A stretch of 24,944 nucleotides of DNA from Longivirga aurantiaca. GTDB lineage: Bacteria; Actinomycetota; Actinomycetes; S36-B12; CAIYMF01. Positions 1,380 to 16,576 of the stretch are shown here, piece after piece. The DNA is taken from assembly GCF_042660085.1 (NCBI RefSeq), contig NZ_JBHSTI010000034.1, positions 1 through 24,944 on the forward strand. Direction: 5' to 3'. The notes beneath the pieces are model-generated. The model did no database searches. It saw only the letters and a list, made by a program, of their open reading frames with translations, and was not told the DNA's origin. Position 1 is the stretch's first letter, and each line of letters begins with the position of its first letter. The position numbers and the translations under genes are program-made.

Positions 1380-1380
1380 G

Positions 1381-2151
1381 TCAGCGTCCCGGGCGTGCGC
1401 TGCGGACGAGCCGGTCGCGCAGCTCGCGCGTGTGCCGGCGGGACACCTGCAGCACCGCGTCGCCCACGCGCACGCTCACGCGGCCGCCGTCGGTGCGCAC
1501 CTCGTCGATCGCGTCCAGCGGCACCAGCCAGCGGCGGTGGATGCGCACGAAGCCGGCCGACGCCCACTGCTCCTCGAGCAGCGCGAGCGACACCCGCACG
1601 AGGTGCCGGCCGTCCTCGGTCACGAGCCGCGCGTAGTCGCCGTGCGCCTCGACGTACCGCACGTCGGACCGCTTCACGAAGCGGGTGACGCCGCCGAGCT
1701 CGACCGCGATGGTCTCGTCGTCGTCGGCCTCCGCGCCTGCCGCCGCGGGAGGGGCGACGCGTCCCCGTGCCTCGAGCACTCGGCCTACCGCCTCGGCCAG
1801 GCGCTCGTCGCGCACCGGCTTCATGAGGTAGTCGACCGCGCGCAGGTCGAACGCCTCGAGCGCGTGCTGGTCGTACGCCGACACGAACACGACCGCGGGC
1901 GGCGAGGCGAAGCGCCGCAGCACGCGCGCGAGGTCGAGCCCGTCGAGCCCGGGCATGCGGATGTCGACGAAGAGCGCGTCGTACGGCGTGTCCTCGAGCA
2001 TGCGCAGCGCCTCGGCGCCATCGCCCGCCGTCTGCACCTCGCTCACGCGCTCGTCGCGTCCGAGGAGGTACGCGAGCTCGGCGCGGGCCGGCGCCTCGTC
2101 GTCGACGGCGAGCACGCGCAGACCGGCCGGCGGTGCGGCGTCGTCGCTCAT
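1381..2151 (-). CDS. LytR/AlgR-family response regulator (receiver plus LytTR DNA-binding domain)
   Basis: Receiver motifs LRVLAVDDE, DALFVDIRMPGLDG and YLMKP. The C-terminal LytTR-like segment is RYVEAHGDYARLVT...FVRIHRRWLV. Its ATG overlaps the kinase stop codon (ATGA at 2148-2151). Confidence 0.9.
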   Translation of the reverse strand: MSDDAAPPAGLRVLAVDDEAPARAELAYLLGRDERVSEVQTAGDGAEALRMLEDTPYDALFVDIRMPGLDGLDLARVLRRFASPPAVVFVSAYDQHALEAFDLRAVDYLMKPVRDERLAEAVGRVLEARGRVAPPAAAGAEADDDETIAVELGGVTRFVKRSDVRYVEAHGDYARLVTEDGRHLVRVSLALLEEQWASAGFVRIHRRWLVPLDAIDEVRTDGGRVSVRVGDAVLQVSRRHTRELRDRLVRSARPGR

Positions 2152-3296
2152 GCGTGGACTCCTGGGGTGAACTTCGGGACCCGCATCGAGACCTTCGTCC
2201 CGAGACCGGGCCCAGTCTCGACCACGAGGCCGTACTCGTCACCGAAGACGGTCCGCATCCGCTCGTCGACGTTGCCGACGCCGATGGAGTCGCTGTCGCC
2301 CTCGCCCGTCATCGCGAGCCGGATCTGCTCGGGGTCGGCGCCGATGCCGTCGTCCTCCACCGTGATGAGGCACTCGCTGCCGGCGTCCTCGGCGAGGATC
2401 GTGATGTGCCCGGGCCCCGCCTTGCCCTCGAGCCCGTGCCGGACGGCGTTCTCCACGATCGGCTGCAGGCAGAGGTACGGCACAGCCACCGGGAGCACCT
2501 CGGGCGCGACCCGCACAGTGACCTGCAGCCGGTCGCCGAAGCGGGCGCGCTCGAGCGTGAGGTAGCGGTCGATCGAGCGCAGCTCCTCCGCCAGCGTGGT
2601 GAAGTCGCCGTGCCGGCGGAACGAGTACCGCGTGAAGTCGGCGAACTCGAGCAGGAGCTCGCGCGCGTGCTCTGGGTCAGTCCGCACGTACGACGCGATC
2701 GCGGTGAGCGCGTTGTAGATGAAGTGTGGCGAGATCTGCGCCCGCAGCGCGCGCACCTCCGCCTCCGCGAGCCGGGCGCGCGACGCGTCGAGCTCCGCCA
2801 GCTCGAGCTGCGACGACACCCAGCGCGCCACCTCCGTCGTCGCGCGCACGAGGTTGGCCGTGGCGTCGTCGGTCACAGCCACCAAGGCTCCGACGACGCG
2901 ATCCTCGACCACCAGAGGTGCCACCACCGCGACGTGCCCGAGAGCCCCGACGTCGCGAGTGACCGCAGCCCTGCCGCTCGCGAGCACCGTGGCCACGGCG
3001 TCCATCCCGAGGCCCTCGGCCACCGCGCCGTCGGTCGCGAGCACGCGGTCGGTGTCGGTGATCGCGAAGCCCTCGGACCCGAGCAGTGCGTGCAGGTGCC
3101 GGGCCGCGCTCTCGGCGGCGTCCTCGGTGAGGCCCTCCCGCAGCGCCGGGGCGGCCTGCGACGCGCGGTTGAGCGTGGCGTACGTCGCCTTGTCGGCCTC
3201 GCTGCCGAGGTCGCCGCGGCGCAGCACGCGCAGCGCAGCCACGGCGACGGCGACCAGCACCACCGCCACGACGACCGCGACCACGACCGGGGGCAC
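2148..3296 (-). CDS. LytS-type sensor histidine kinase (one N-terminal TM helix, sensor domain, His_kinase H-box, HATPase)
   Basis: H-box QISPHFIYNALTAIA. ATPase motifs QPIVENAVRHG, DDGIGADP and GVGNVDERM. I place the start at GTG 3296 (VPPVVVAVVVAVVLVAV, a TM helix) because a TANNNT box (TACGGT) lies exactly 6 nt upstream. The only other in-frame start is ATG 3401, inside the palindrome. The 642-aa track ORF (to 4076) is an artefactual extension. Confidence 0.85.
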   Translation of the reverse strand: MPPVVVAVVVAVVLVAVAVAALRVLRRGDLGSEADKATYATLNRASQAAPALREGLTEDAAESAARHLHALLGSEGFAITDTDRVLATDGAVAEGLGMDAVATVLASGRAAVTRDVGALGHVAVVAPLVVEDRVVGALVAVTDDATANLVRATTEVARWVSSQLELAELDASRARLAEAEVRALRAQISPHFIYNALTAIASYVRTDPEHARELLLEFADFTRYSFRRHGDFTTLAEELRSIDRYLTLERARFGDRLQVTVRVAPEVLPVAVPYLCLQPIVENAVRHGLEGKAGPGHITILAEDAGSECLITVEDDGIGADPEQIRLAMTGEGDSDSIGVGNVDERMRTVFGDEYGLVVETGPGLGTKVSMRVPKFTPGVHA

Positions 3297-3302
3297 GCGC
3301 CG

Positions 3303-3308
3303 ACCGTA
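3303..3308 (-). promoter_or_regulatory. Candidate -10 box TACGGT for a leaderless kinase transcript
   Basis: On the minus strand: TACGGT, then 6 nt (cggcgc), then GTG at 3296. This is the TANNNT-N6-start geometry typical of actinobacterial leaderless mRNAs. Confidence 0.35.
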
Positions 3309-3354
3309 GCGCCGCCCGCCCTCCCAGCCGCCCCTTCCAGCCCCCCGAACCCCG

Positions 3355-3416
3355 CGAGTTACTGCCCGAATGGTCGTTGAGCACCAGGCTTCAACGACCA
3401 TTCGGGCAGTAACTCG
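3355..3416. repeat. Perfect inverted repeat with 26-bp arms (CGAGTTACTGCCCGAATGGTCGTTGA) and a 10-nt spacer
   Basis: The left arm (3355-3380) is the exact reverse complement of the right arm (3391-3416). The arms are clearly more AT-rich than the flanks. It lies between the divergent kinase and Fic-like genes. Confidence 0.95.
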
Positions 3417-3450
3417 AAGCCCTCGCGGGTGGGGGAGGGCGGGTGGCACG

Positions 3451-3456
3451 TAGCGT
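3451..3456 (+). promoter_or_regulatory. Candidate -10 box TAGCGT for a leaderless transcript of the Fic-like gene
   Basis: TAGCGT, then 6 nt (ggcggg), then GTG at 3463. No convincing Shine-Dalgarno sequence. Confidence 0.35.
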
Positions 3457-3462
3457 GGCGGG

Positions 3463-4263
3463 GTGCCGACCGACGTCCTCGCCCCGCTGCTCGACCTCCC
3501 CGGGGTCGCCGACGCCGTGGCCTCCGCCCGGTCCGCGGTCGACGAGGTGCTGTGGGACCGCGGCGTACGTGCGCGGGCCGGCGAGGTGGTGGCCGCCTCC
3601 CGGATGCGCGGCGGCTGGGCATCGGCGGCCATCGACGGCGCGGAGGTGCGCCCCGACGCCCTCGTGTCCGGCGACGCGCTCGACGGCTCGCCCATGGGCC
3701 GCGTCGTCGGCGCGGCTCTCGCTGTCCAGGTCGAGACGCCGCTGCTCGTCGACACGTTCGGCCGCGCGCCCCTGCAGGCGCTGTCGCGGCTGCACGCCGT
3801 CGCCTCCGCGGGCTTCGTCGACGACGACCTCCGTGGCCGGCTCCGCACGAGCGACGACGCGGACGACCCGATGCGCCTCGGCGGGCTCCCGTCGTACGCC
3901 GAGGCCTCGCGCCGCACCACCCAGCTCGCCACGGTGCTCACCTCGCCGACCGAGGCCCCCGCGCTCGTCGTGGCTGCGATCGCGCACGGCGAGATCGCCG
4001 TGCTGCGGCCGTTCCCCTGGGGTTCAGGGCTTGTCGCCCGCGCGACCACCCGCCTGGTGCTCGCCGCCCGCGGCATCGACCCGGACGGCCTGACCGTCCC
4101 CGAGGCGGGCCTCTTCGCCGCCGGCCGTCCGGCGTACGCCGAGGCGCTGCGCGCCTACGCGTCCGGCACGCCCGAGGGAGTGGCACGGTGGATCGTGCTC
4201 CACGCCGAGACGGTGCGCGTCGGCGCCGCCGAGACCCGGCGGATCCTGGCCGACCTGGTCTGA
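3463..4263 (+). CDS. Conserved actinobacterial protein with a degenerate Fic-like core motif (often auto-annotated as oxidoreductase; as I recall, Rv3662c/SCO3559-like)
   Basis: 266-aa ORF with high GC3. The segment HGEIAVLRPFPWGSGLVARATTRL aligns to the Fic motif HPFxxGNGRxxR, with Arg in place of the catalytic His. Confidence 0.8.
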   Translation: MPTDVLAPLLDLPGVADAVASARSAVDEVLWDRGVRARAGEVVAASRMRGGWASAAIDGAEVRPDALVSGDALDGSPMGRVVGAALAVQVETPLLVDTFGRAPLQALSRLHAVASAGFVDDDLRGRLRTSDDADDPMRLGGLPSYAEASRRTTQLATVLTSPTEAPALVVAAIAHGEIAVLRPFPWGSGLVARATTRLVLAARGIDPDGLTVPEAGLFAAGRPAYAEALRAYASGTPEGVARWIVLHAETVRVGAAETRRILADLV

Positions 4264-4275
4264 CCCGGACAGCGA

Positions 4276-4304
4276 ACGACGCCCCTGCTAGCGAGAGGCG
4301 TCGT
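4276..4304. terminator. Stem-loop just after the Fic-like gene stop; possible factor-independent or bidirectional terminator
   Basis: ACGACGCC (4276-4283) pairs with GGCGTCGT (4297-4304) around a 13-nt loop. There is no U-tract, which is common in high-GC actinobacteria. Confidence 0.35.
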
Positions 4305-4642
4305 CGCCGCACGGCGCTCGGGCGATCAGTGCGCTGAAGTGTCCGTCGGGTCGGGTGCGGTGAGCCGCTCTCCCGGCCGTGACGCCCGTTACGTGGGTTG
4401 TCCGCAGCGTGGGTATCCCGGGTGGTGCCGTGCTCTGGTCGTGTCTCGGTCGCCTTTCGATCCGCTGGTCGGCCCCGTCGGCCGGCTCCCGTGGCTCTGG
4501 TGTACTCCCGTGTCAGGCCCGGTGGAAGACCCTGTGCCTCTTGACTTTCCGCCGATCCCGGAGTTCGTCCGATGATCGGGCGACCCGTCACTCTCCGGGT
4601 TCGGATGCCAGACTCAGCAGTGCCCACGCGATCTCGGCCCCC
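4305..4642. ncRNA. Candidate structured non-coding RNA locus (Ms1/6S-like by position); strand and ends not determined
   Basis: About 340 nt with no credible ORF: the track ORFs here have poor composition and no recognisable motifs. GC is visibly lower than in the flanks. Local hairpins occur at 4550-4582 and 4467-4487. An internal direct repeat is CCGTG(G)CTCTGGT at about 4428 and about 4489. The position beside the Rv3662c-like gene matches where Ms1-type RNAs are reported. Confidence 0.35.
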
Positions 4643-4670
4643 GCTCGAGCACGTCAGCTCGAGCACGTCA
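4643..4670. repeat. Perfect tandem duplication of the 14-mer GCTCGAGCACGTCA, which folds as an 8-bp stem with a 6-nt loop
   Basis: 4643-4656 equals 4657-4670. GCTCGAGC is self-complementary, so the two copies pair. The methyltransferase stop codon (4668-4670) lies inside the second copy, so this could be its terminator. Confidence 0.9.
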
Positions 4671-5351
4671 GAGAGTGCCGTCGGTGGGCTGGTTCACCCG
4701 CGGACCTGTGGCGGCGAAGATGGCCATCGAACCGACCGCCTCCAGTTCCACGTCCTCGAACGATGCCTCGAGGATCTCGCGGAGGCCCTCCAGCGTGTCA
4801 CCAAGGTTGTCGAAGGTGCCTCGCCGGTTGTTCGTCCTGAGGACGGTGCGCGAAAGGCGCGTGCTGTGCCCGGAGTCCCCGAGGATCGTTGCACCGAAGA
4901 GGACGCCGGTGGGGGCGAGGACCGCTGCCACGTTGGCGATGGCGACAGCCTTGCGCGGGAGAGGCCCCGGCAGGCAATGGAGCACGCCGCTGAGCGCAGC
5001 AGAGTCGAACGGCCCGTGGACGGGAAGCGGCTTGCAGACATCCGCCTCTATCAGGGTGACGTCGTGTCCCTGGAGCCTCCGGGACGCAAACTCGAGGACG
5101 TTCCGGTTCGGGTCGAGGAGGGTGACGGCTTGGTGGTCGTGGATCCCGGCTCGGTCCAGGAAGTAGCCGGTGCCAGGGCCTACGTCGAGATGCCTGTCGC
5201 CGAGGTGTCGCCGGTACTCCTCCACCAGACGCGCGGGCGGGATGCGCCACACCACTGGCGCGAAGAAGCCGAGGACCAGCGAGTCGTAGATCGTGAGGAA
5301 GGGCCGGGTGTACTCACGCTGGCCCTTGTACGCGGCGTCGTCTCGGTCCAT
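4668..5351 (-). CDS. Class I SAM-dependent methyltransferase
   Basis: 227-aa ORF with motif I HLDVGPGTGYF and a Rossmann-like beta/alpha pattern. GAGG lies upstream of the ATG (gaggtgacATG). GC looks slightly lower than in neighbouring genes. Confidence 0.85.
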   Translation of the reverse strand: MDRDDAAYKGQREYTRPFLTIYDSLVLGFFAPVVWRIPPARLVEEYRRHLGDRHLDVGPGTGYFLDRAGIHDHQAVTLLDPNRNVLEFASRRLQGHDVTLIEADVCKPLPVHGPFDSAALSGVLHCLPGPLPRKAVAIANVAAVLAPTGVLFGATILGDSGHSTRLSRTVLRTNNRRGTFDNLGDTLEGLREILEASFEDVELEAVGSMAIFAATGPRVNQPTDGTL

Positions 5352-5478
5352 GTCACCTCATTGCGGCCACGGCGGAGGGATGGTTCCAACGTGCACTCGC
5401 GCAGATCGTTGGTCAAGGGGTGACGAAGCGTCGTTCGTTCCGGCTCGTCCGTGAGCGGACCGGCGTTCGCCACCGCTC

Positions 5479-5745
5479 GTGCCAGCATCGGCCACGTGCT
5501 GTGCTTCCCGGCGCTCCACCGACATAGTCGGCCACCTGGACTGCCCGTACTGCGACACCGAGATGACGTCCGGCGTGATCGTGGGTCGGTCCCCGGGCGT
5601 GACGTCCAAGAGCGAGCGGAGCGTCGCCGGCGACCTCGGCAGCACGCTTCTCATCGTCGGATCCTTCAACCACTCCGCTCCGGCGTACCGCAGCACCGGA
5701 TGCGGCACCGTCGTCGTTCCCGGACCGCAGAAGAGGGAGCGCTGA
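5479..5745 (+). CDS. Small zinc-ribbon-like hypothetical protein
   Basis: 88-aa ORF with high GC3 (about 86% by my count). It has an N-terminal knuckle CPYCDTEM followed by SGVIVG, and a C-terminal AYRSTGCGTVVV in which the first Cys of the second knuckle is replaced. The start codon is uncertain (GTG 5479 has no clear RBS). Confidence 0.35.
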   Translation: MPASATCCASRRSTDIVGHLDCPYCDTEMTSGVIVGRSPGVTSKSERSVAGDLGSTLLIVGSFNHSAPAYRSTGCGTVVVPGPQKRER

Positions 5746-5855
5746 CGCGACGCCTTGCCGATCGATCGCGCTGCGGGCTGAGCGACCCGGCGAGGACGTC
5801 ACGAGTCGGGCGCCATTGGGGGTCGGATCGCTTCGTATGCAGCGCATTTCGACCT

Positions 5856-5903
5856 CCAGGGCACGAGGCGGAGCGGCGGCAGATCGGTGCAGACGTGCCC
5901 TGG
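5856..5903. terminator. Inverted repeat CCAGGGCACG / CGTGCCCTGG with a 28-nt loop, 8 nt after the stop of the last paralog
   Basis: 10-bp perfect arms at 5856-5865 and 5894-5903. It lies between the convergent small ORF and paralog 4. The large loop and absent U-tract make it weak. Confidence 0.25.
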
Positions 5904-5911
5904 TGCGAAGG

Positions 5912-7369
5912 TCAGGGGAGGGACCAGCCGAGCTCGACGAGGGTGTCGGGGGTGAGCAGCGGGCAGGCGTCGCTGACCCAGGGCGCGACCGTCTCCTGGT
6001 CGAGCGGCACGGTGAGCGGCGTGGGCCGGAGGCCGTCGACGAAGCGGATCACAACGGACGGCGGGGCAGGGTTGACGGTGCACTCGAAGGTCCACGTGAC
6101 CGTCGCCGTGCCACCGCCCGGGGGGAGGGTGGCCCAGGGGATCTGCCCCGGGGCGGGCGTGCCGAAGGACGGGTCCTGGCTGACGCCGACCTTCATGGTC
6201 CGGTCGTCGGTGACCGTCACGCCGGCCGTCATGGTGAGCGAGGTCGTCCCGAAGGCCGGGTCGGCGACTCTGCGGACGACCCGCAGGTCGGACAGCGTCA
6301 CCGCAGGGGTGTCGGCGCAGATCGCGGCGAGGGCGCGTCGGATGACCGCCGACTGGGCCTGGGTGAAACGCAGCGGCACCTGAGCGCCGGCCAGCTGGTC
6401 TGCGGTCGCGACCACCACGGCGATCCCGTCGGTCTCGGAGTACGCCGTGCCGGCACCCAGGCTGTCGGGCACCCAGGTGCGCGGCACGTCCGGCGTGCCC
6501 GGCGCGCAGTCGGTGACCTCGAGGCGGGCGTCGACCGCCTTGGTGCCGCCGGCGACGAGGCCGCTCAGGTCTCCGGTCCAGGGGATGCGGAGCCGGTCGA
6601 GCTCCGCGCCGTCGATCCGGAGGAGGGCGTCGAAGGGCATGGTGCTGACGACGTCCATCTGCAGCGCGACGGCCGCAGCGCCGACGTCGATCCTCGTGCG
6701 TACGTCGCCCAGGCGGACGCTGCCGGCCACGGCCTGCTGCCAGCAGGTCTGGCGGACGTACTCGGCCCAGCCGAAGTCGGTGGACGGGAGGTCGGCCATT
6801 CCGGAACGCTCGCGCCCCCAGGCGTCGGTGGTGGTGACCCGCAGGTGGAAGTCGCGGGTGGTCGCCCGGATCGCGTCGTCGGTGCAGCCGATCACCGCGC
6901 GCACCACGGCGGCGTCCGGGTTCCCGCCGCCCTGAGGGGCTCCCACGGAGCTCGCGCGGATCCCCGGGCCCTCCAGCGCGTCCACCCGCACGGACACCGT
7001 CGGGTCGTCGGTGGTCGCGAGGTACGCCGCCACCGCGAGGTCGGGCTCCAGCACGCTGAGGTACGGCCCGTTGGCCTCGTCGACGGTCGCGGCCGCGAGG
7101 TCGACGGTCGCGTCGCGCCTCGGAGGCGGCTGCGCGCCGAGCCAGGCCGTCGTCCCGACGCCGAGGGCGACGACCGCGACGGTCGCGATGCCCACGACGA
7201 CCCGATGGCGTCGCAGCCACGGGGTGATGCCGGCGTCGTCGAGCCGTTCCTTCCACGCGCTGCCGGCGTCGTCGCCGACGACGTCGGACGGGCGGTCGAC
7301 GCTGCTCGCGCCCTCGATGACCGAGCCGAGGTCGTCGAGGTCGAGACGCCCGTCTCCGGGGCCGGTCAT
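5912..7369 (-). CDS. Paralog 4 of an uncharacterised single-pass membrane protein family (485 aa)
   Basis: Internal ATG at 7369 of track ORF 5912..8371, overlapping the paralog 3 stop (ATGA). N-terminus MTGPGDGRLDLDDLGSVIEG...GITPWLRRHR, then a TM helix (VVVGIATVAVVALGVGTTAWL). The ectodomain has six Cys (IGCTDD, RQTCWQ, VTDCAPG, AAICAD, FECTVN, SDACPL). Confidence 0.88.
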   Translation of the reverse strand: MTGPGDGRLDLDDLGSVIEGASSVDRPSDVVGDDAGSAWKERLDDAGITPWLRRHRVVVGIATVAVVALGVGTTAWLGAQPPPRRDATVDLAAATVDEANGPYLSVLEPDLAVAAYLATTDDPTVSVRVDALEGPGIRASSVGAPQGGGNPDAAVVRAVIGCTDDAIRATTRDFHLRVTTTDAWGRERSGMADLPSTDFGWAEYVRQTCWQQAVAGSVRLGDVRTRIDVGAAAVALQMDVVSTMPFDALLRIDGAELDRLRIPWTGDLSGLVAGGTKAVDARLEVTDCAPGTPDVPRTWVPDSLGAGTAYSETDGIAVVVATADQLAGAQVPLRFTQAQSAVIRRALAAICADTPAVTLSDLRVVRRVADPAFGTTSLTMTAGVTVTDDRTMKVGVSQDPSFGTPAPGQIPWATLPPGGGTATVTWTFECTVNPAPPSVVIRFVDGLRPTPLTVPLDQETVAPWVSDACPLLTPDTLVELGWSLP

Positions 7370-8862
7370 CCGCGCACCAGCAGCTGTCGCGGCCAGCCCG
7401 CCCCGGCAAGCGCCTCGGAGGTCTGCGCCGAGCAGCCGCGCAGGACCGCACGCGCGACCGCGTCGTCGTCGAGCACGCCGCGCCACGGCCAGGTGCGCGT
7501 GCCGTCGGTCGCCGTCACCGACACGGCCGGGGGAGCCGGCGTGCTCGCGCACGCGTAGCGCCACACGACCTCGACCGGCCCGGGGCCGGACGGCACCGTG
7601 CGCCCGGAGAAGACCGTCGGCAGACCGGCATCGCCGCGCACCTCGACCGCGGTGACCGAGCCGGACGACAGCCGTACGTCGAGCGCGATCCGCATCTGCC
7701 GCTCGTCGGACGGGCCGCCGAGCGCCTGCACGACGGGCGCGCCGACCGGTCGTAGGTCGACGTCCGGTGCCCCTGCGCACACGGCGTCGAGCGCCCCCTG
7801 CACGGTGGCCGTCTGCTCGGCGTCCAGTACCAGCGGCACCCGGGTCGTGAACTGCCGGTCGGGTGAGGCGACGTACAGCGGGATCCCGGGCGCCCGAACG
7901 GCATACGAGCTGGGCTCGAGGGTGACGGGCACTCCGACCACGGGCGGCGCGACCTGGGCGCAGCTCGTGACCGACATCAGCACCTCGGTCTGCGCGCCGA
8001 GCCCGGCGGCGAGCCCGACACGGAACGACTGGCCGACGCGCACGCCGCGGTCGTCCTGCTCCACCGGCTCGGATCCGGCCACCAGGTCGAGGGGTGCGTC
8101 GTTGGACAGGACCAGCCCGATCGTGACCGTCCCGCGTGCGAGGTCGGGCCGCGCGGCCAGGTCGTCGATGGCAATCCCGCGCCGGACGGATGACTCCCAG
8201 CAGGTGCGCCGCACCTGGGCGGCCCAGCCTGCGGCTGCGTCGGGGAGGGGGACGGTCGAGCGTGCGGTGCGACCCCAGCGGTCGGTGCGCGTCAGCGCGA
8301 GCTCGAAGTCCTCCGGCTCGGCGGACAGCGAGCGGGGGCTCGCGCAGTCGATCGTCGCCGCGGCCGACCACAGGACGTCAGCCGGTTCCGCATCGTCCGA
8401 GGTGGCGCGGATCGCCGTACCGCGAGACGCGCCCAGCCCGGGCCCGACGATGCCGCTCACCGCGACCGTGTCACCGGTGGGCACTCCGCTGACCACGGCG
8501 CGGGCCAGGACGAGGTCGGAGTCGGCGATCCACGACCCGCCCGGCGTCTCGGTGATCCGCTCGGGGACGGGCACCGACTCCACCGCAGCTACCACGCGGG
8601 GGTCGAAGGGTGGGGGCTCGTTCGCCTGGCGAACCGCGACGACGACGAGGCCGCCCACGGCCAGCACCGAGGCCGCGACGACGACGCCGCGGTGGCGGCG
8701 CATCCACGGCAGCACGCCCGCGTCCTCGAGCCGCTCGGACAGGGACGGCCGGCCGACGCCGTCCTCGAGGGTCTCGGCGGAGTCGGCGCTGCTCGCCGCC
8801 CCGATCACCGAGCCCAGCTCGTCGAGATCGAGGCGTCCGTCACCGCCGGTGCCGACCCCCAT
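7366..8862 (-). CDS. Paralog 3 of the same family (498 aa)
   Basis: N-terminus MGVGTGGDGRLDLDELGSVIG...GVLPWMRRHR, then a TM helix. Six Cys (IDCASP, RRTCWE, VTSCAQ, DAVCAG, RYACAS, LRGCSA). It is the closest relative of paralog 4. Confidence 0.9.
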   Translation of the reverse strand: MGVGTGGDGRLDLDELGSVIGAASSADSAETLEDGVGRPSLSERLEDAGVLPWMRRHRGVVVAASVLAVGGLVVVAVRQANEPPPFDPRVVAAVESVPVPERITETPGGSWIADSDLVLARAVVSGVPTGDTVAVSGIVGPGLGASRGTAIRATSDDAEPADVLWSAAATIDCASPRSLSAEPEDFELALTRTDRWGRTARSTVPLPDAAAGWAAQVRRTCWESSVRRGIAIDDLAARPDLARGTVTIGLVLSNDAPLDLVAGSEPVEQDDRGVRVGQSFRVGLAAGLGAQTEVLMSVTSCAQVAPPVVGVPVTLEPSSYAVRAPGIPLYVASPDRQFTTRVPLVLDAEQTATVQGALDAVCAGAPDVDLRPVGAPVVQALGGPSDERQMRIALDVRLSSGSVTAVEVRGDAGLPTVFSGRTVPSGPGPVEVVWRYACASTPAPPAVSVTATDGTRTWPWRGVLDDDAVARAVLRGCSAQTSEALAGAGWPRQLLVRG

Positions 8863-8894
8863 GGCCAGACCCTACGGTCGCGCCCGGCGCGGGC

Positions 8895-10433
8895 TCACGA
8901 CGCGCGCCATCCACGGGCCTCGGCCGCGACCACGTCGAGGTCGAGGCCGCAGGCGCGCGCGACGGACTGCAGCAGCGCGAGGTCGTCGACGGGAACCTCG
9001 TAGGGGTGCACGGAGCGGTCGGGCATGAGCACCCGGACCGCCATCCACTGCGGCGACGCCGTCTGCACGCCGGCGCACGACCCGCCGCGGACCGGCACGA
9101 GCATGCGTCCGGCGCCGCCGTCGATGCGGGCCGGCCCGAACGCCCACCGGTCGCCCGTCGCGGGGCCGGGCCCGCCGACCGTCGACGACTCGCTCGTGAG
9201 CACCGAGTCGACGCCCGACTCGCCGCCCGTGAAGTGCTCGCGCCCGAACGTGATCCCGATGCCGTCGGAGCGGGCCGACACGAGTGCCGGCATCTCCCAG
9301 GAGCCGCCGGCGCCGAAGGTCGGCGGGCCGACGTCGTCGATCCCCGCCGTCACGCCGGTGGCTCCGGTGCAGGCGGTCGCCAGAGTCCGAGCCAGAGACT
9401 CCGCGCCGGCCACGGGGTACGACGCGACCCGCGCCCGGCCGCCGAGGCCGACCTCGAGCGTGAGCCCGCCGGCGCCGTCCGGCCCCGACGCGTTCGGCAG
9501 TGCGCCGAGGGGCGTGAGGGCGGGCTGCTCGGTGCAGTCGTGCACGAGCACGCGGGTGGCGAGCAGGCCGAACTCCCCGGGCCGCACCACGACGGCGGGC
9601 GAGAGGTCGACCTCCACACCGGCGCCGGGGTGGCGCGCGGTGCGCAGGGTGAGCGTCTGCGGCGAGGTGTTGGCGACCTCGACGCTGAGGTCGGCCAGGG
9701 GCGTGCCGGGCACCGCGGTCGCGCGCACCGAGCCGATCGTGACGGCGGCCGGGGCGAGAGAGGCGAGGCACCAGTCGGTGATCGCCTTGTCGAGCGAGGT
9801 GACCGGCCGCGTTCCCTCCGTGGCGAGCGGCACCGTCCCGGCCTCGGGATCGCCTCCGACCTGGGACCCGGCGGCCTCGAGCGCGTACGACGATGCGCCG
9901 GCGGTGAGCAGCGACGGGTCGGTGCAGTCGACCCGCGCCGTGATGCCCACGCGCTCCTCGACCTCGCTGGTGACGGGCGCACCGGTGGCTGCGACGTCGC
10001 GCAGCGCGGGCCCGCGCAGGCCGGTGATGCTCACGGTCTCCCCGGGGGTGCGGCCGCGGGCCACGAACGCCACCGACAGCTGCCCGTCCGGGGAGATCTC
10101 CGGGCCGCCGATCGAGTTGCCCTCGAGCACGGCGTTGGCCAGGGCCAGGTCGAACGTCGGCGGCACGTACGGCGGGCGCGAGGTCCACCACGCCGTCGCC
10201 GCGAGCGCGACGACGGCCACCACCGACGTCACGCGCACACCGGCGCGGTGGCGGGCGACGAACGGCGCTGCCCGGGTGTCGACCCAGCGCTGGACCGGGT
10301 TGGGGCGCAGCTCCTCCGCGGCCTCGGGGTCGGCGAGGTCGAGCACTGTGCCCGCGACGGGTCCGCCGGCCGCGTCGACGACGCGGCCGTGCTCGTCGAT
10401 CTCGAGCCGACCGTCGTCGGTCATCGCAGGCAC
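8895..10433 (-). CDS. Paralog 2 of the same family (512 aa; the most divergent member)
   Basis: N-terminus (MPA)MTDDGRLEIDEHG...APFVARHR, then a TM helix. Six Cys (VDCTDP, TDWCLA, VHDCTE, ATACTG, GGSCAG, ARACGL). The start is GTG 10433 or ATG 10424. Confidence 0.88.
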   Translation of the reverse strand: MPAMTDDGRLEIDEHGRVVDAAGGPVAGTVLDLADPEAAEELRPNPVQRWVDTRAAPFVARHRAGVRVTSVVAVVALAATAWWTSRPPYVPPTFDLALANAVLEGNSIGGPEISPDGQLSVAFVARGRTPGETVSITGLRGPALRDVAATGAPVTSEVEERVGITARVDCTDPSLLTAGASSYALEAAGSQVGGDPEAGTVPLATEGTRPVTSLDKAITDWCLASLAPAAVTIGSVRATAVPGTPLADLSVEVANTSPQTLTLRTARHPGAGVEVDLSPAVVVRPGEFGLLATRVLVHDCTEQPALTPLGALPNASGPDGAGGLTLEVGLGGRARVASYPVAGAESLARTLATACTGATGVTAGIDDVGPPTFGAGGSWEMPALVSARSDGIGITFGREHFTGGESGVDSVLTSESSTVGGPGPATGDRWAFGPARIDGGAGRMLVPVRGGSCAGVQTASPQWMAVRVLMPDRSVHPYEVPVDDLALLQSVARACGLDLDVVAAEARGWRAS

Positions 10434-10484
10434 ACCACGGGGCGACGGTAGGCGCGGATCCGCACGTGCGCACCTGAGACGCCG

Positions 10485-11960
10485 CTACCGGACGACGCTC
10501 GCGACCGTCTGACCGCACAGCCGGTCGACGTTCACCCGCAGGGAATCGCCCCGCAGGCGCAGGACGTAGGGACGACGTACGTCGTCGCTCACGAGGCGTA
10601 CGGGGAGCTTCGGTGGGCCGGCAGCGAGCAGGTCGAAGCACTGCGGAAGGTCCCAGCGCAGGTGCAGGCGGGCGACGCCATTGCTCACGATCACCGGGCT
10701 CTCGAAGGCCGTGACGAGTCCGCCCGGCCCGGCGGGCAGCGCCTGCACCTCGACGAGGAACGACTGGGGTGCCGCGACGTCGACGTACATCGTGAGGGTG
10801 CCGGCTGACTCCTCCGTGGTGCCGCCCGCCACTCGTGCCCGCACCAGCGTCGCGGTCGGCGGGGTCGCGGTGCAGGTGGAGCGGAGCGCGGCGGCCACGG
10901 CGTCGAGGGCGGCGGTGTCGAGCGGGAGGGTGAAGGTGGGGGCGAGGCGATCGCCCTCTGGCCCGTCGCCGATCGTGGCCCGGAGCGGAACGCCGGCCGA
11001 CAGCGGTGCGACCGGGTCGGTGCAGTCCTCGGGCCACAGCCGGACGGGCACCCAGGCGTCGGTGCCCGCGGGGATGTCGACGTCGGGACCGTTGGAGACG
11101 ATCGTGGGGCCGGCGGTGGTCGAGACGTGCAGGGCCCGCCAGTCCTGGCCCGAGGTGTTGCGGACGTGCAGCCGGACGTCGGTGGCGATGGCGCCCGGCA
11201 CCGCCGCGACGTCGACGGCCTCGACCGTGAGGTCGCGCTCCGCGGCGATCTGCACGCACGCGGCGCGGACGTCGTTGAGCCACTCCTCGCCGCCCGCGAG
11301 CGGCACGGAGTCCTCCCGCACCTCGCCGAGCGCGGACGTGCGCCGGATCTGCACGCGGTAGTCGCGGGCGCGGGCCGACGCCACCGCTGCCGTCGCCTCC
11401 GGTGTCGAGCACTCCACCTGCGAGGTCATCGCGCCCGTCACGGTGTCGCCCGGCAGCGCGCTGATCACGCGCGACTGCGGACGGCTGAGACCCGGGCCCA
11501 CGACGCCGATGGTCTCGACGGTGGTGCCGGCCGGCTCGTCGGAGCTCAGCAGCACGAGCTGGGTGATGGCGGTGACCTGGCCGGTGGCGGCGTCGACGAT
11601 GAGACGGGCGGGCTCGTTGCCGCCGGTCGTGACCGCTACCCGGGGATCGGCCATCGGCGTCGGGCGCCCGCTCCACCAGATGCCGCTCGCGATGAGCGCC
11701 ACCGCGAGCGCGACCACGGCCGTGCCGGTGAGCGCGCGGTGGCCGCGGACCCAGGGCAGCGCGCCGGTCGACTCGAGGTGCTCGCGGATCCGCTCCGACA
11801 GCAGCGGCCGTTCGTCGTCGCCGACGATGTCGAGGGTCGTCGTCTCGTCGAGGTGGTCGAGATCGAGCCGGCCGTCGAGGCTGTCGCCGTACCGCGTGCC
11901 GTCCTCGGACCTGCCGCCGCGCGCGCGTCCCCACCCGCCGGGGGGAGGGGACGTGGTCAT
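10485..11960 (-). CDS. Paralog 1 of the same family (491 aa)
   Basis: The ATG lies 12 nt after the HAD gene stop. N-terminus ...SLDGRLDLDHLDE...GALPWVRGHR, then a TM helix. Six Cys (VECSTP, RAACVQ, PEDCTD, RSTCTA, PQCFDL, DRLCGQ). Confidence 0.9.
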   Translation of the reverse strand: MTTSPPPGGWGRARGGRSEDGTRYGDSLDGRLDLDHLDETTTLDIVGDDERPLLSERIREHLESTGALPWVRGHRALTGTAVVALAVALIASGIWWSGRPTPMADPRVAVTTGGNEPARLIVDAATGQVTAITQLVLLSSDEPAGTTVETIGVVGPGLSRPQSRVISALPGDTVTGAMTSQVECSTPEATAAVASARARDYRVQIRRTSALGEVREDSVPLAGGEEWLNDVRAACVQIAAERDLTVEAVDVAAVPGAIATDVRLHVRNTSGQDWRALHVSTTAGPTIVSNGPDVDIPAGTDAWVPVRLWPEDCTDPVAPLSAGVPLRATIGDGPEGDRLAPTFTLPLDTAALDAVAAALRSTCTATPPTATLVRARVAGGTTEESAGTLTMYVDVAAPQSFLVEVQALPAGPGGLVTAFESPVIVSNGVARLHLRWDLPQCFDLLAAGPPKLPVRLVSDDVRRPYVLRLRGDSLRVNVDRLCGQTVASVVR

Positions 11961-11972
11961 GGCCGCTGCTCG

Positions 11973-12779
11973 CTACGCCGCCGAGCCGCGACGGCGGCTG
12001 GCGTACCAGGCGATGCCGAGCGCCACGGTGGCGGCGCCCACCCGCAGCGCGGTGCGGCGGTTCTTCTCGGTGTTGAGCTGGGAGAGCCGCTCGCGCATGG
12101 TCTTCATCGCGACGGGCCGGGCGAAGTCGACGATCGGCCACTCGCGGTCGACCGCGATCTTGCGCAGCGGGGCGTCGGGGTTCACGCACACCGGGTGCCC
12201 GACGATCTCGAGCATCGGCAGGTCGGTCATCGAGTCGGTGTAGGCGTAGCAGTCGGCCAGGTCGTAGCCGTTCTCCTCGGCGAGCGCGCGCATGGCCTCG
12301 GCCTTGCCCTCGCCGTACGCGTAGAACACGATCTCGCCGGTGTACTTGCCGTCCTCGATCGCGACCTGCGTGCCGATCGCGCGGTCGACGCCGAGGCGCT
12401 CGCCGATCGGCTCGACCACCTCGGTGCCGGACGAGCTGATGATGATGACGTCGCGCCCTGCCTCCTTGTGCTGCGCGATGAGGTCGACCGCCTCCTCGTA
12501 GACCATCGGGTCGACGATCTCGTCGAGGGTCTCGGACACGATCTGCTTGACCGTCTCGACGTCCCAGCCGCTCACGAGGTCGGACATGTACTTGCGCATG
12601 TACTCGAGCTGGTCGTGGTCGGCGCCGGACGCGACGTAGGAGAACTGCGCGTACGCGCTCTTGAGGACGTCGGCCCGCCCGAGCAGGCCACCCTTGTAGA
12701 ACGGGCGCGCGAACGCCAGCGAGCTCGACTTGGCGAGGATCGTCTTGTCGAGGTCGAAGAACGCAGCGCTGCGGGACAT
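11973..12779 (-). CDS. HAD-superfamily (SerB-like, subfamily IB) hydrolase with a C-terminal membrane anchor
   Basis: Internal ATG at 12779 of track ORF 11973..13601. HAD motif I is FFDLDKTIL. Further motifs are IISSSG and the YTDSMTDLP region. The C-terminal helix is LRVGAATVALGIAWYASRRR. A TACCAT box lies 6 nt upstream of the ATG. Confidence 0.9.
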   Translation of the reverse strand: MSRSAAFFDLDKTILAKSSSLAFARPFYKGGLLGRADVLKSAYAQFSYVASGADHDQLEYMRKYMSDLVSGWDVETVKQIVSETLDEIVDPMVYEEAVDLIAQHKEAGRDVIIISSSGTEVVEPIGERLGVDRAIGTQVAIEDGKYTGEIVFYAYGEGKAEAMRALAEENGYDLADCYAYTDSMTDLPMLEIVGHPVCVNPDAPLRKIAVDREWPIVDFARPVAMKTMRERLSQLNTEKNRRTALRVGAATVALGIAWYASRRRGSAA

Positions 12780-12785
12780 GGGTCG

Positions 12786-12791
12786 ATGGTA
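12786..12791 (-). promoter_or_regulatory. Candidate -10 box TACCAT for a leaderless HAD (and possibly paralog array) transcript
   Basis: On the minus strand: TACCAT, then 6 nt (cgaccc), then ATG at 12779. Confidence 0.35.
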
Positions 12792-12833
12792 GGCGCGCTG
12801 GCCGACCGCGGTGCGCCTCTGGACGCCGCTTCG

Positions 12834-12871
12834 TCGTCCACAGCCCGTCACGCGCGGCGCGTCGTCCACAG
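12834..12871 (+). promoter_or_regulatory. Direct-repeat pair of TCGTCCACAG (extended to CGTCGTCCACAG), 28 bp start to start, upstream of ssd
   Basis: Exact copies at 12834-12843 and 12862-12871, in the 144-bp divergent HAD/ssd intergenic region. The same motif pair recurs upstream of flp. Confidence 0.5.
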
Positions 12872-12923
12872 GCGACGCCAGGCGGAACCGGTCTCCGGGG
12901 GTGGTCGTCGGGACGGTCGGGCC

Positions 12924-13967
12924 ATGGCTGCGACGACCCTGCTGGTGACCGACGACCCCGTGCTGACCGACCTCGTCCGCCGCGTGGTGGCCGTGACCGG
13001 ACGCGACCTCGAGGTGGTCGCCGACCCGCGGGGCGCGCGGGCGTCCTGGGCGCGCGCCGACGACGTGATCGTGGGCGGCGACGCCATCCGCGCATGCCTC
13101 GCCGCCGGGGTGCGGCGACGGCCCCGGGTGACTGTCGTGACCTCCGGCGACGCCGAGCTGCCGTGGCCCGAGGTGCTGGCGCTCGGCGCCGAGGCCGTGG
13201 TGCCGCTGCCGGCGGGCGAGGGGCAGCTGCTCGAACGCCTGGCGACGAGCGCGCACGCCGAGGGTGGCGGCCTCGTCGTGGGCGTCGTCGGCGGGAGCGG
13301 CGGCGCGGGCGCGAGCGTGCTGGCGGCGGCCCTGTGCCTCGCCGCGGTCCGGGCACGGCTCGCGCCGCTGCTGCTCGACGCCGACCCCGACGGCCCGGGC
13401 GCCGACCTCCTGCTCGGGGCCGAGGACGCGACCGGCGCCCGGTGGCGCGACCTGGCCGACGTGACCTCGGCCCTGGACCCCGCGAGCCTGCGGGCCGCCC
13501 TTCCGCAGGCGCACGGCGTGCACGTGCTCGCGGTGGACCGCGGCGACGGGCAGGCGCTGCCGCTCGCCGCGCTCGACCCCGTGGTGACGAGCGCCCGGCA
13601 CGCCTTCGACCTGGTCGTGCTCGACCTCGCCCGGGCCTCTGCTTCCGAGCGGGCCGCGGCGGCCTGCGACGTCGTCCTCCTCGTCGCGACCGGTGACGTG
13701 CGCGGTGCGACGTCGGCGGCGCGCACGGTGTCCCGGCTACGCGGCGAGGCGCCGCTGCGGCTGGTGGCCCGGCAGGTCCCGGGCGGGGGCCTGGATGGTC
13801 CGGCCCTCGCCGACTGGCTCGACCTCCCGTCGGCCGCCGACCTCGGGCACGACCCGCGCCTGCTCGCGTCGCTCGACCGCGGCGATCCGCCTGGCGCGGG
13901 CGGGCGGCTGGCGAAGGTGTGCGACCAGCTGCTGGCAGCGGTCCTCGGCGAGCGGGCCGCGGCATGA
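12924..13967 (+). CDS. ssd: Ssd / CpaE(TadZ)-like ParA-MinD-family protein of the helicase/secretion neighbourhood
   Basis: Internal ATG at 12924 of track ORF 11127..13967. It has an N-terminal receiver-like region, then a deviant P-loop VVGGSGGAGASVLAAAL, then DADPDGPG and VLDLAR. It is followed by tadA with an ATGA overlap. Confidence 0.85.
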   Translation: MAATTLLVTDDPVLTDLVRRVVAVTGRDLEVVADPRGARASWARADDVIVGGDAIRACLAAGVRRRPRVTVVTSGDAELPWPEVLALGAEAVVPLPAGEGQLLERLATSAHAEGGGLVVGVVGGSGGAGASVLAAALCLAAVRARLAPLLLDADPDGPGADLLLGAEDATGARWRDLADVTSALDPASLRAALPQAHGVHVLAVDRGDGQALPLAALDPVVTSARHAFDLVVLDLARASASERAAAACDVVLLVATGDVRGATSAARTVSRLRGEAPLRLVARQVPGGGLDGPALADWLDLPSAADLGHDPRLLASLDRGDPPGAGGRLAKVCDQLLAAVLGERAAA

Positions 13968-15130
13968 GCCCGGACTCCGACGTCCTCGACCGCGTGCGGA
14001 CCCGGCTGCTGGCCGCCGGTGTCGCCCCCACCGGCGCCGAGGTGGCGCGGGCACTGCGGGAGGACGGCGTGCTCCTCGGCGGCGACAGCCTGCTCGCCGA
14101 GGCCGAGCGCGTGCAGGCCGAGCTCTCCGGCGCCGGACCGCTCGAGCCGCTGCTGCGCACGCCCGACGTGACCGACGTCCTCGTCACCGCGCCGGACGAG
14201 GTGTGGGTCGACCGGGGCTCGGGCGTCGAGCGGGTGCCGGTGCGGTTCCGCGACGAGGCCGCCGTACGCCGGCTGGCGCAGCGCCTCGCCGCGAGCTGCG
14301 GCCGCCGGCTCGACGACGCCGTGCCCTACGTCGACGGACGGCTCCCGGACGGCACCCGGCTGCACGCGGTGCTGGCACCGGTGTCGGTCGGTGGCACCTG
14401 CCTGTCGCTGCGCGTGCCGCGCCGCCGCAGCTTCAGCCTCGACGAGCTCGTGGCCGCCGGGTCGATGCCGGCAGAGCTGGGCCCGTGGCTGCGCGCCGTG
14501 GTGCGCGCGCGGCTGGCGATCGTCGTGAGCGGCGGCACCGGCACGGGCAAGACCACGTGGGTCTCCATGCTCCTGGCCTCGTGCGACGCCCGGGACCGCA
14601 TCGTCGTGGTCGAGGATTCCGCCGAGCTCGTGCCCGACCATCCGCACGTCGTGCGGCTCGAGTCGCGGCCGCCCAACATCGAGGGCGCGGGTGCGATCAC
14701 CCTAAGGGACCTCGTGCGCCAGAGCCTGCGCATGCGGCCCGACCGCGTCGTGGTCGGCGAGGTGCGCGGTGCCGAGGTGGTCGACATGCTCGCCGCGTTC
14801 AACACCGGGCACGAGGGCGGGCTGACCACCGTGCACGCCAACAGCGCCGCCGACGTGCCCGCGAGGCTCGAGGCGCTGGCGCTGACCGGTGGGCTCGACC
14901 GCGTCGCAGCGCACGCGCAGATGGCGGCGGGCCTCGACGTCGTCGTCCATCTGCAGCGCGGCCGTGACGGAGTACGCCGCTGGGCCTCGGTCTCGGTCGC
15001 GCGCCGCGTCGGCGAGGTCACGGTGCTCGACGACGCGCTCCGGCGCTCCGGCACGGGCGGTCTCGAACCGGGCCCGGGGTACGCGCGGCTCGTCGACCGC
15101 CTCGGCAGCCACGCGCCGGTGCTCCCGTGA
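13964..15130 (+). CDS. tadA: TadA/CpaF-family secretion ATPase
   Basis: Walker A SGGTGTGKTT, Walker B IVVVEDSAEL, and the VGEVRGAEV and TGHEGGLTTVHAN boxes. I chose the ATG at 13964 because it overlaps the ssd stop. The track ORF starts 15 codons earlier. Confidence 0.9.
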   Translation: MSPDSDVLDRVRTRLLAAGVAPTGAEVARALREDGVLLGGDSLLAEAERVQAELSGAGPLEPLLRTPDVTDVLVTAPDEVWVDRGSGVERVPVRFRDEAAVRRLAQRLAASCGRRLDDAVPYVDGRLPDGTRLHAVLAPVSVGGTCLSLRVPRRRSFSLDELVAAGSMPAELGPWLRAVVRARLAIVVSGGTGTGKTTWVSMLLASCDARDRIVVVEDSAELVPDHPHVVRLESRPPNIEGAGAITLRDLVRQSLRMRPDRVVVGEVRGAEVVDMLAAFNTGHEGGLTTVHANSAADVPARLEALALTGGLDRVAAHAQMAAGLDVVVHLQRGRDGVRRWASVSVARRVGEVTVLDDALRRSGTGGLEPGPGYARLVDRLGSHAPVLP

Positions 15131-15786
15131 CCGCCATGGTGACGGCCGCCCTCGTCGCGGCTGCACTGGTGCTCGTGCTGCTGCCGGGCCGACCCCCTGC
15201 TCGGCACCGGCGTCGGTCGTGGGCCCCGTCGGTGCCTCGCCCGGCCCGGGCGGCCGAGCGTCGGCGGGCCGAGCTCGAGTGGGTGGAGGCGCTCGCGGCG
15301 GAGACCCGCGCGGGCCGCGACCCGGCGTCGGCCGTCGTCGCCGCGGGATCGGAGTCGATGCCCTCGCCCGCGATCGCCCGGGCCGTGGCGGCGGCCGGCG
15401 GCGGTGGCGACGTGGCAGCCGCGCTGCGGTCGCCCGACGGGGCGTCCGACCTCATGCGCGCCGTCGCCGCCTGCTGGGAGGTGGCGCACGGCTCGGGTGC
15501 GGGGCTCTCGGCGTCGCTCGCGGCGCTCGCCGACGCGGGGCGCGAGTCCGAGCGCGTGCGCCGCGACCTGCGCGCGGGGCTCGCCGAGCCCCGCGCCACA
15601 GCGGTCGTGCTGGCTGCGCTGCCCGTGGTCGGCCTCGGTCTCGGTGCCGGCCTCGGCGCGGATCCGTTCGCGTGGCTGCTGCGCACCGGGCCCGGCCTCG
15701 CGGTGCTCGCCGCCGGCGTCGCGCTGGAGCTCGTCGGCGTGCTGTGGTCGTGGCGGATCGTCACCGCTCTCGAGGCCGACCTGTGA
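15127..15786 (+). CDS. tadB: TadB-like type II secretion system F-family membrane protein
   Basis: 219 aa with an N-terminal TM helix, a central soluble region and C-terminal TM helices. GTGA overlap with tadA. Position within the tad operon. Confidence 0.8.
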   Translation: MTAMVTAALVAAALVLVLLPGRPPARHRRRSWAPSVPRPARAAERRRAELEWVEALAAETRAGRDPASAVVAAGSESMPSPAIARAVAAAGGGGDVAAALRSPDGASDLMRAVAACWEVAHGSGAGLSASLAALADAGRESERVRRDLRAGLAEPRATAVVLAALPVVGLGLGAGLGADPFAWLLRTGPGLAVLAAGVALELVGVLWSWRIVTALEADL

Positions 15787-16496: not shown

Positions 16497-16513
16497 CCGA
16501 CCGCCTCCGCCGT

Positions 16514-16548
16514 GCAGGGCCGTCGACCGCTCCGGTCGGCGGCCCTGC
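16514..16548 (+). terminator. Strong GC hairpin (16-bp stem with one U-G pair, 3-nt loop) 18 nt after the tadC stop
   Basis: GCAGGGCCGTCGACCG-CTC-CGGTCGGCGGCCCTGC. No U-tract. It separates the tadABC genes from the pilin genes. Confidence 0.45.
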
Positions 16549-16576
16549 GGCGTGCCCGGTGCCGGATGCCCGGGTC

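Follow-up and report, generated by a model that had tools for sequence, protein, structure and literature searches.

The described systems closest to the locus reported here are sets of tandem membrane paralogs. PilN/PilO and GspL/GspM, the alignment proteins of type IV pili and the type II secretion system, are bitopic proteins with a cytoplasmic N-terminus (N-in), encoded by tandem paralogs beside a pilus ATPase operon, and a short N-terminal peptide is their best-conserved part. The Mce proteins (MceA-F) are also single-pass, N-in tandem paralogs, are encoded in a fixed order and are thought to form a hetero-oligomeric structure that spans the envelope. Here we analyze a 24,944-nucleotide (nt) stretch of DNA of about 75% G+C from Longivirga aurantiaca (assembly GCF_042660085.1, contig NZ_JBHSTI010000034.1, positions 1 to 24,944), hereafter the window, in which four tandem genes on the minus strand (5912-11960) encode single-pass proteins that resemble both systems in layout and match no named family. 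Their general kind is familiar, namely an array of membrane-anchored surface proteins with several immunoglobulin (Ig)-like domains. The family itself is unnamed and lineage-restricted, and the motif in its predicted cytoplasmic N-terminus is new as well.

An array of four diverged paralogs

A first-pass annotation of the window had listed four consecutive minus-strand genes of 491, 512, 498 and 485 amino acids (aa), and open reading frame (ORF) calls, translations and third-codon-position G+C content (GC3) bear this out. We refer to them as P1 (10485-11960, 491 aa), P2 (8895-10433, 512 aa from a GTG start), P3 (7366-8862, 498 aa) and P4 (5912-7369, 485 aa). GC3 is 0.9-1.0 in the called frame of all four ORFs and, together with ratios of nonsynonymous to synonymous substitution rates (dN/dS) of 0.14-0.52 against the close relative L028, this establishes that the four are real genes under purifying selection. 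Pairwise BLASTP comparisons of P1-P4 gave identities of 25-32% at E = 9e-6 to 7e-49, the latter for P3 against P4, so their paralogy is not a matter of chance. For P2, the true start is more probably an ATG at 10424, which lies 9 nt inside the listed GTG and gives a protein of 509 aa, because the distance from the N-terminus to the DGRL motif described below then equals that in P3 and P4, and because the gene call in L028 agrees (ortholog called at 509 aa).

Upstream of the array, on the same strand, lies a gene for a HAD-IB hydrolase with a C-terminal transmembrane (TM) tail (11973-12779; PF12710, E = 1.5e-36; TIGR01490, E = 1e-61). Twelve nt separate its stop from P1, 51 nt separate P1 from P2 (60 nt if P2 begins at the ATG), 32 nt separate P2 from P3, and P3 and P4 overlap by the 4 nt ATGA, in exact agreement with the spacing listed before. 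Given these short gaps, and since no terminator-like site was found on the minus strand, read-through co-transcription with the HAD gene, as had been suggested, is plausible; in five relatives with gene calls, the first family gene also follows HAD on the same strand, at a distance of 9-41 nt.

A shared layout with a conserved N-terminal motif

All four paralogs share the architecture that the first-pass annotation had described. A net-acidic N-terminal tail of about 55-75 aa carries DGRL[DE][LI]D, and P[WF]xxxHR abuts the start of the sole hydrophobic segment, which by hydropathy spans about 20 residues (19-22) and has basic residues right before it. Each protein contains exactly six Cys, and in a four-way alignment D-G-R-L-x-x-D, P..HR and the six Cys are invariant. 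The N-terminal motif reads DGRLDLD in P1 (residues 28-34; 11859-11879, minus strand, as for all array features), DGRLEID in P2 (10395-10415) and DGRLDLD in both P3 (8821-8841) and P4 (7334-7354). In P1, hydropathy places the TM helix at residues 75-96 (11673-11738), with LPWVRGHR before it and RPTP after it. The Pro-rich linker that had been proposed behind the helix is there in part: RPxP or PPP directly follows the TM segment in every paralog, as a short stretch of 3-4 Pro rather than a long linker. In its general form, the layout consists of [DE]G[RH]L[DE]LD near the N-terminus, an amphipathic helix ending in PWxRRHR, the TM helix and an RPPP stretch.

Consistent with the earlier description, P1-P4 qualify neither as sortase substrates nor as lipoproteins: regular-expression searches of the four proteins for LPXTG, a lipobox and HExxH were negative, the loose LAGAG of P3 has no anchor behind it, and no Cys occurs before residue 161 in any of them. 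No catalytic motif or named domain was found in P1-P4. We also considered a Tat signal, suggested by RRHR, and rejected it; the string is GHR in P1, H-R being its sole invariant part, and the hydrophobic segment is as long as a TM helix.

A family without a named relative

When P1-P4 were compared with Pfam, the best match had E = 0.11, and NCBIfam returned none. Among 56 diverse members, no Pfam or NCBIfam family was matched by more than two members (best E 0.0013), and N-terminal tails scanned alone for named domains gave nothing significant. Searches of PADLOC, PHROGs and PDB sequences with the family were likewise without a match, including any defence or phage profile. OapA_N (2 of the 56 members, E = 0.023) and TilS_C (E = 0.02-0.25), both on the segment before the TM helix, were judged to be noise. 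A mobile-element or phage origin was rejected as well, as no homologues were found in phage or plasmid records, the G+C content matches that of the flanks and the orthologues are syntenic.

To map the distribution of the family we relied on HMMER, run exhaustively against 1.84 billion cluster representatives (50% clustering), in place of a word-indexed homologue search that gave only orthologues of P1 (class A, below), even with a 56-sequence profile. HMMER returned about 282 representatives at E<=1e-3 and 91 at E<=1e-30, all from metagenomes or metagenome-assembled genomes (MAGs) labelled Ca. Nanopelagicales, Actinomycetes or Actinomycetota, and every member is annotated as a hypothetical protein at most. 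The 150 best matches are mostly 450-530 aa long and align end to end, fragments aside. The 56-member alignment has no invariant columns beyond those of the six Cys and a single Gly, and exactly six Cys occur in 89 of 116 full-length representatives. The earlier view of an unassigned, lineage-specific family therefore stands.

A predicted ectodomain of three Ig-like modules

We modelled full-length P1, and its second module alone, with AlphaFold2 (AF2) and assigned secondary structure with DSSP. The full-length model has a mean predicted local distance difference test score (pLDDT) of 82 and a predicted template-modeling score (pTM) of 0.66. Its N-terminal tail is of low confidence and unstructured (pLDDT < 50 at residues 1-31 and 38-47), so that the DGRLDLD segment is modelled as disordered. 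Helices at residues 53-72 run into the TM helix, which is modelled as a continuous 23-residue helix (74-96).

Beyond the membrane, the model divides into three modules: module 1 (residues 105-242; 11235-11648), a beta-sandwich with a closing helix, containing Cys183 and Cys234; module 2 (residues 243-365; 10866-11234), containing Cys312 and Cys362 and reaching a pLDDT of 90.7 in the domain-only model; and module 3 (residues 366-490; 10491-10865), containing Cys440 and Cys481. The order of elements is common to the three, with five or six strands, a Cys, two strands and a long helix that bears the second Cys. DSSP on the AF2 models (pLDDT 82 and 91) places the modules in the Ig-like fold class, as two-sheet beta-sandwiches of seven to eight strands. 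Alignments between P1 modules with hhalign were weakly significant (P = 0.005-0.07) and paired Cys with Cys; because this repeat signal is weak, the case for triplication rests mainly on the repeated element order and Cys positions.

Foldseek comparison of the full P1 model with the PDB gave 105 matches at E<=1e-3; each of these is a tandem beta-sandwich protein, and the TM-scores are 0.1-0.22. For a single module it gave none at E<=1e-3, and the best single-module matches were to MSP/ASH, PCuAC and adaptin-ear sandwiches (TM-score <=0.44). A structural match to a characterised family, which would have spoken against a new family, was thus not found among PDB structures, where Foldseek gave generic Ig-like folds only. 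On these models, the ectodomain is a triplicated Ig-like module without a close solved relative, and each module may hold one intradomain disulfide, which would be consistent with an extracytoplasmic location.

Three classes in fixed order and graded divergence along the array

In a neighbour-joining tree of 49 array proteins (midpoint root, without support values), three clades track array position: the first gene of an array belongs to class A, the second to class B, and the third and later genes to class C. P1 belongs to class A, which is always first in the arrays of relatives, P2 belongs to class B, and P3 and P4 pair as sisters within class C through a later duplication, P4 being the lineage-specific duplicate. 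Because the clades follow array position, the array is an old A-B-C set in fixed order, with C re-duplicated in some lineages and no recent burst. The tree also agrees with the earlier proposal of a predicted extracytoplasmic module that grew by duplication. Arrays hold one to five copies, with one in L022, one on each side of HAD in L023 and five in L006, and some MAG copies are frameshifted, through either assembly error or decay. In L018 (8381-11488), a class-B and a class-C copy share one frame of 1036 codons with two full HMM matches, which is either a natural fusion or the result of a missed stop or frameshift in the MAG.

We estimated divergence gene by gene (Nei-Gojobori) between the window and L028, whose array lies at 10820-16862. 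For the flanking genes, amino acid identities are 96-98% in HAD (98%, dN/dS 0.08), TadA (96%, 0.07) and other neighbours, and 90% in Ssd (0.16). Along the array, identity falls from 92% in P1 (dN/dS 0.14), the slowest-evolving copy, through 79% in P2 (0.30) and 72% in P3 (0.35) to 61% in P4 (0.52), the fastest. Other genome pairs show the same ordering, with A slowest, C fastest and the family less conserved than its neighbours. Divergence of the ectodomains thus far outpaces that of the neighbouring genes, and the difference grows from P1 to P4. Synonymous divergence (dS) rises as well, from 0.29 in P1 to 0.46, 0.55 and 0.58 in P2-P4, against 0.11 in HAD and 0.23-0.40 in the other flanking genes, a rise that may reflect recombination or allelic replacement at the distal end, in place of simple clock-like divergence.

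The N-terminal tail follows a different course. In P1 it is 100% identical to that of L028, and mean tail identity is 0.49-0.57 within classes and 0.29-0.41 between classes, compared with a mean ectodomain identity between classes of 0.19-0.24. The putative cytoplasmic tail is therefore the best-conserved part of these proteins, and the fast evolution of the ectodomains favours a surface-exposed role.

An optional insertion beside a conserved HAD/Ssd/Tad backbone

Hidden Markov model (HMM) matches confirmed the neighbours named by the first-pass annotation: the HAD-IB hydrolase (TIGR01490), Ssd (TIGR03815), TadA (TIGR03819), TadB, a TadE-like protein (NF041390/TIGR03816) and a DEAH helicase (TIGR03817). 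Related loci were found in two ways, and this affects what they can say about the motif. Seventeen of them (L004-L020) were retrieved with the peptide DGRLDLDxL[DG] and are hence ascertained through the motif; the distant lineages L021, L024, L029 and L030 were ascertained by HMM. Gene order is kept across 17 genome loci and several metagenome contigs, with a backbone of helicase, NTP-transferase, (acetyl-CoA hydrolase), tadC-B-A and ssd and, divergent from ssd, HAD, a variable number of family genes, a Fic-like gene on the opposite strand, LytS and LytR.

The family is not a fixed part of this neighbourhood. The 120 best HAD homologues are 68-98% identical, and among related loci L025, L026 and L027 (HAD 71-78% identical) have the full backbone, from helicase through Tad and Ssd to the divergent HAD and Fic-like genes. 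An HMM search of these three loci found no family member, the best match (E 0.034) falling on the HAD ORF itself; in L026 the Fic-like gene comes directly after HAD. Since these loci keep the backbone without the family and since copy number varies, the array is an accessory insertion of 0-5 copies at the junction of HAD and the Fic-like gene, optional rather than core. The converse also occurs. The 21-kb locus L012 has no tad/ssd operon at all between its helicase/NTP-transferase genes and HAD (1-10000), and HAD is retained with three family copies; in L022, a serine-recombinase element interrupts tadA, and the single family gene is intact. Distant members occur in unrelated contexts, as a singleton in L021, as a tandem pair beside PAP2 and S11 peptidase genes in L024, and in L029 and L030; a local tad locus beside the family is absent from these four and from L012.

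These comparisons do not support the earlier proposal that the family is functionally joined to the Ssd/Tad neighbourhood, given the three loci without the family, the L012 locus without Tad and Ssd, and the distant members elsewhere. The link of the family to Tad and Ssd appears to be positional, not obligate: no HMM match to a Tad/Flp component (TadZ/A/B/C/E/F/G or RcpC/CpaB) was obtained, nor is there obligate co-occurrence. The suggested connection to cell division through Ssd, or to the Flp pilus, is weakened by the same data. Scattered homologues, which the first-pass annotation had named as evidence against its proposal, are found only for the outer branches of the family (L021, L024, L029 and L030). 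The HAD-IB hydrolase, whose C-terminal TM tail is alike in lineages with and without the family, would be a housekeeping-like gene and a probable operon partner of the array.

The occupants of these intergenic positions differ elsewhere. In Mycobacterium tuberculosis the small RNA (sRNA) MTS2823 occupies the slot downstream of the HAD homologue Rv3661, and the homologous ssd-HAD spacer holds the 6C sRNA B11 (PMC3384566). The presence of MTS2823 in the equivalent slot indicates that this position varies among actinobacteria. In the window, where 6C/B11 and Ms1-like sRNAs were looked for, Rfam gave no match of any kind at the gathering threshold; below that threshold, Actino-pnp was matched in the ssd-HAD spacer (spacer 12780-12923; match 12887-12953, 18.8 bits, E=0.27).

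Other features around the array

Between P4 and the Fic-like gene, the window carries an S-adenosylmethionine (SAM)-methyltransferase gene (4671-5351, minus strand) and one or two small minus-strand ORFs without a match (5361-5708 and 5416-5847). The region 4671-5847 has a lower G+C content (0.68-0.71) and a weak codon-position signal. In relatives, including L028 with its 98% identical HAD, the array is followed by the Fic-like gene and no methyltransferase is called there, so the region looks like a strain-specific insertion.

The Fic-like gene itself (3463-4263, plus strand) encodes 266 aa with weak similarity to Fic (Pfam E=0.0026; PADLOC SoFic E=1e-5). It is conserved in all related loci, whether or not they carry family genes, always in convergent orientation relative to HAD or the array, and is a member of the backbone; its dN/dS against L028 is 0.31, above that of the other neighbours outside the array. 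A gene for H+-PPase also flanks the backbone in L026 and L027.

Farther on, the minus strand of the window (2-3383) encodes a LytS-type kinase, a LytTR regulator, a DUF485 protein and an SSF permease as one unit. In L022 (12936-19653) this unit is followed by a Gpr1/Fun34/YaaH gene and an acetyl-CoA synthetase (Acs) gene, which suggests a carboxylate- or acetate-uptake module. L025-L027 lack this unit and have Acs a short way beyond the Fic-like gene (immediately next to it in L026). L023, which has the family, lacks the unit too, and the unit therefore appears to be independent of the family.

On the other side of the array, a 145-aa plus-strand ORF between the tadC and TadE-like genes (16512-16949) has no match. 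Relatives have a DUF4244 (Flp-type pilin) gene of 60-120 aa at this position, so the true gene within 16512-16949 is probably a shorter Flp pilin. In L022, the truncated tadA lies beside a large serine recombinase, an EcoRI-type methylase and a GmrSD/HNH protein (about 3229-7936), a block that appears to be a mobile element with restriction or defence cargo disrupting the Tad ATPase gene.

Proposed role and alternatives

We tentatively favour, with a probability of about 0.4, the reading that the array encodes non-enzymatic, disulfide-stabilised surface stalks or adhesin-like proteins that carry a docking handle on their inner side and are expressed together with the HAD/Ssd/Tad backbone but are not integral to it. 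The TM helix would serve as a signal-anchor, giving an N-in, C-out topology, and the three Cys pairs, one disulfide per module, would brace a rod, about 10-12 nm long, reaching from the membrane into or across the wall. Proteins of the three classes probably assemble side by side, which would explain their fixed order and stoichiometric operon, and one common cytoplasmic partner would probably hold or position all classes through the shared N-terminal peptide. The outer face may be exposed to external pressure from phage, grazers, other cells or variable ligands, and its rapid, graded divergence would follow from that.

The distribution of the peptide offers one clue to that partner. A motif of the [DE]G[RH]L[DE]LD type occurs throughout the HAD-linked arrays (49 of 49 proteins) and is missing from four lineages outside the HAD/Ssd context, in which the pre-TM motif and the Cys pattern are kept. 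Such a pattern suggests a partner whose gene lies in the neighbourhood or is inherited together with it. Weighing against it, the correlation is confounded by shared descent and, for L004-L020, also by the motif-based ascertainment of those loci. A bolder extension, to which we assign little weight, would have DGRLDLD dock onto an Ssd/TadZ-type ParA-like ATPase, or onto some other component of the helicase/secretion neighbourhood, with the stalks of all three classes forming a so far unrecognised, lineage-specific, wall-spanning adaptor that positions or shields a monoderm Tad pilus and couples a variable outer face to a conserved inner machine.

Several alternatives draw on the same observations. 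The array could encode TM sensors. An external or wall-derived ligand would be bound by the Ig-like ectodomains, and the conserved tail would pass the signal to a regulator through sequestration and release, in the way of anti-sigma or one-component-associated bitopic sensors. The conserved disordered tail does resemble a short linear binding motif, diverged ectodomains on one common tail would suit several inputs with one output, and a LytS/LytR pair lies nearby; yet the proteins contain no anti-sigma (zf-HC2, RskA) or other signalling domain, no sigma factor is found among the window genes, and the convergent Fic-like gene separates LytS/LytR from the array. That pair instead travels with the DUF485/SSF permease block, next to an Acs gene in L022, and is missing from L023, where the family is present. 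We regard a sensor as unlikely. Slightly more doubtful is a role as accessory to the Tad pilus, with the classes forming an extracytoplasmic alignment or wall-spanning subcomplex and the peptide docking onto an Ssd/TadZ-type ATPase or TadA/B/C in the manner of PilN and PilM. Such a role would account for the position of the array, divergently adjacent to ssd-tadA-tadB-tadC-flp-tadE in the window and most related loci, for its PilN/PilO-like logic (bitopic, N-in, a short conserved N-terminal peptide, tandem paralogs) and for the presence of DGRL in all HAD/Ssd-linked members and its absence from the four motif-less lineages elsewhere. It fits poorly with L025-L027, which keep Tad, Ssd and HAD without the family, with L012, which has the family without Tad or Ssd in 21 kb, with the intact family gene beside the disrupted tadA of L022, with the far faster evolution of the family than of TadA, TadB and Ssd, and with the lack of any Tad, PilN or RcpC HMM match; the link between motif and context may, moreover, simply reflect the shared descent of one subfamily.

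Two further explanations seem to us less probable still. The proteins could be partners of the HAD-IB phosphatase, for instance organising or receiving a dephosphorylated envelope precursor, as the close same-strand spacing in loci with gene calls, the family genes on both sides of HAD in L023, the retention of HAD and family without Tad in L012, and the C-terminal TM helix of HAD would all allow. HAD, however, is far more conserved than the family (70-98% identity), and related genomes devoid of family genes still encode it with an unchanged TM tail; the tail motif offers no Ser, Thr or Tyr to dephosphorylate, and distant family members occur without HAD. We are equally sceptical that the N-terminal 75-100 residues are a long export signal (YSIRK-type or extended) whose cleavage releases a soluble three-module wall or S-layer-like protein. 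Small residues do follow the hydrophobic segment (IAS-G in P1, ATA-W in P2, RQA-N in P3 and LGA-Q in P4) and a conserved motif sits at the extreme N-terminus, but the stretch of about 19-22 residues, modelled as a 23-residue helix, is like a signal-anchor and exceeds the 7-15 residues of an h-region, and no wall-sorting or S-layer homology motif was found.

If the surface-stalk reading is right, these proteins represent an undescribed domain family, with an Ig-like sandwich, a closing helix and a conserved Cys pair in each module, together with an undescribed cytoplasmic N-terminal peptide motif, in poorly known, uncultured, high-GC actinobacteria. Variable copy number, fast graded divergence and an invariant inner handle form a pattern usual in surface antigens and phage receptors. 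The family could thus mark surface diversification in these actinobacteria, and its N-terminal peptide could provide a handle for finding the cytoplasmic partner.

Comparison with known systems

The array combines features of several known systems. With PilN/PilO it shares the bitopic N-in logic, the conserved N-terminal peptide and the tandem paralogs, whereas its predicted ectodomain consists of three Ig-like sandwiches over about 400 aa, in contrast to the coiled coil and ferredoxin-like domain of PilN/PilO; its motif, DGRLDLD, lies about 40 residues from the membrane and differs from the PilN peptide INLLP, and the array is dispensable for the Tad backbone, as L025-L027 illustrate. No PilN, PilO or type II secretion HMM in Pfam or NCBIfam matched P1-P4 or the 56 members. 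The likeness to Mce lies in the tandem paralogs, the identical N-in single-pass layout and the fixed order. Here too the ectodomain sets the family apart, being Ig-like with predicted disulfides, with no match to the MCE (MlaD) domain in Pfam or NCBIfam, and the window contains no genes for YrbE permease or ATPase partners.

Bitopic anti-sigma factors (RskA/zf-HC2) offer a third parallel, with an N-in single pass, a conserved cytoplasmic part and a variable extracytoplasmic part. The tail of the family differs in being disordered and acidic, without a Zn motif; no anti-sigma domain was matched by the proteins or their N-terminal tails, and no sigma factor gene is adjacent in the window. At the level of fold, the modules belong with generic Ig-like, MSP-PapD-like and PCuAC sandwiches, although no Big, CARDB or DUF11-type Pfam family matched any of the 56 members. 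What distinguishes the modules from generic Ig-like domains is the addition of a closing alpha-helix and a conserved Cys pair, and the proteins are held by an N-terminal anchor in place of LPXTG.

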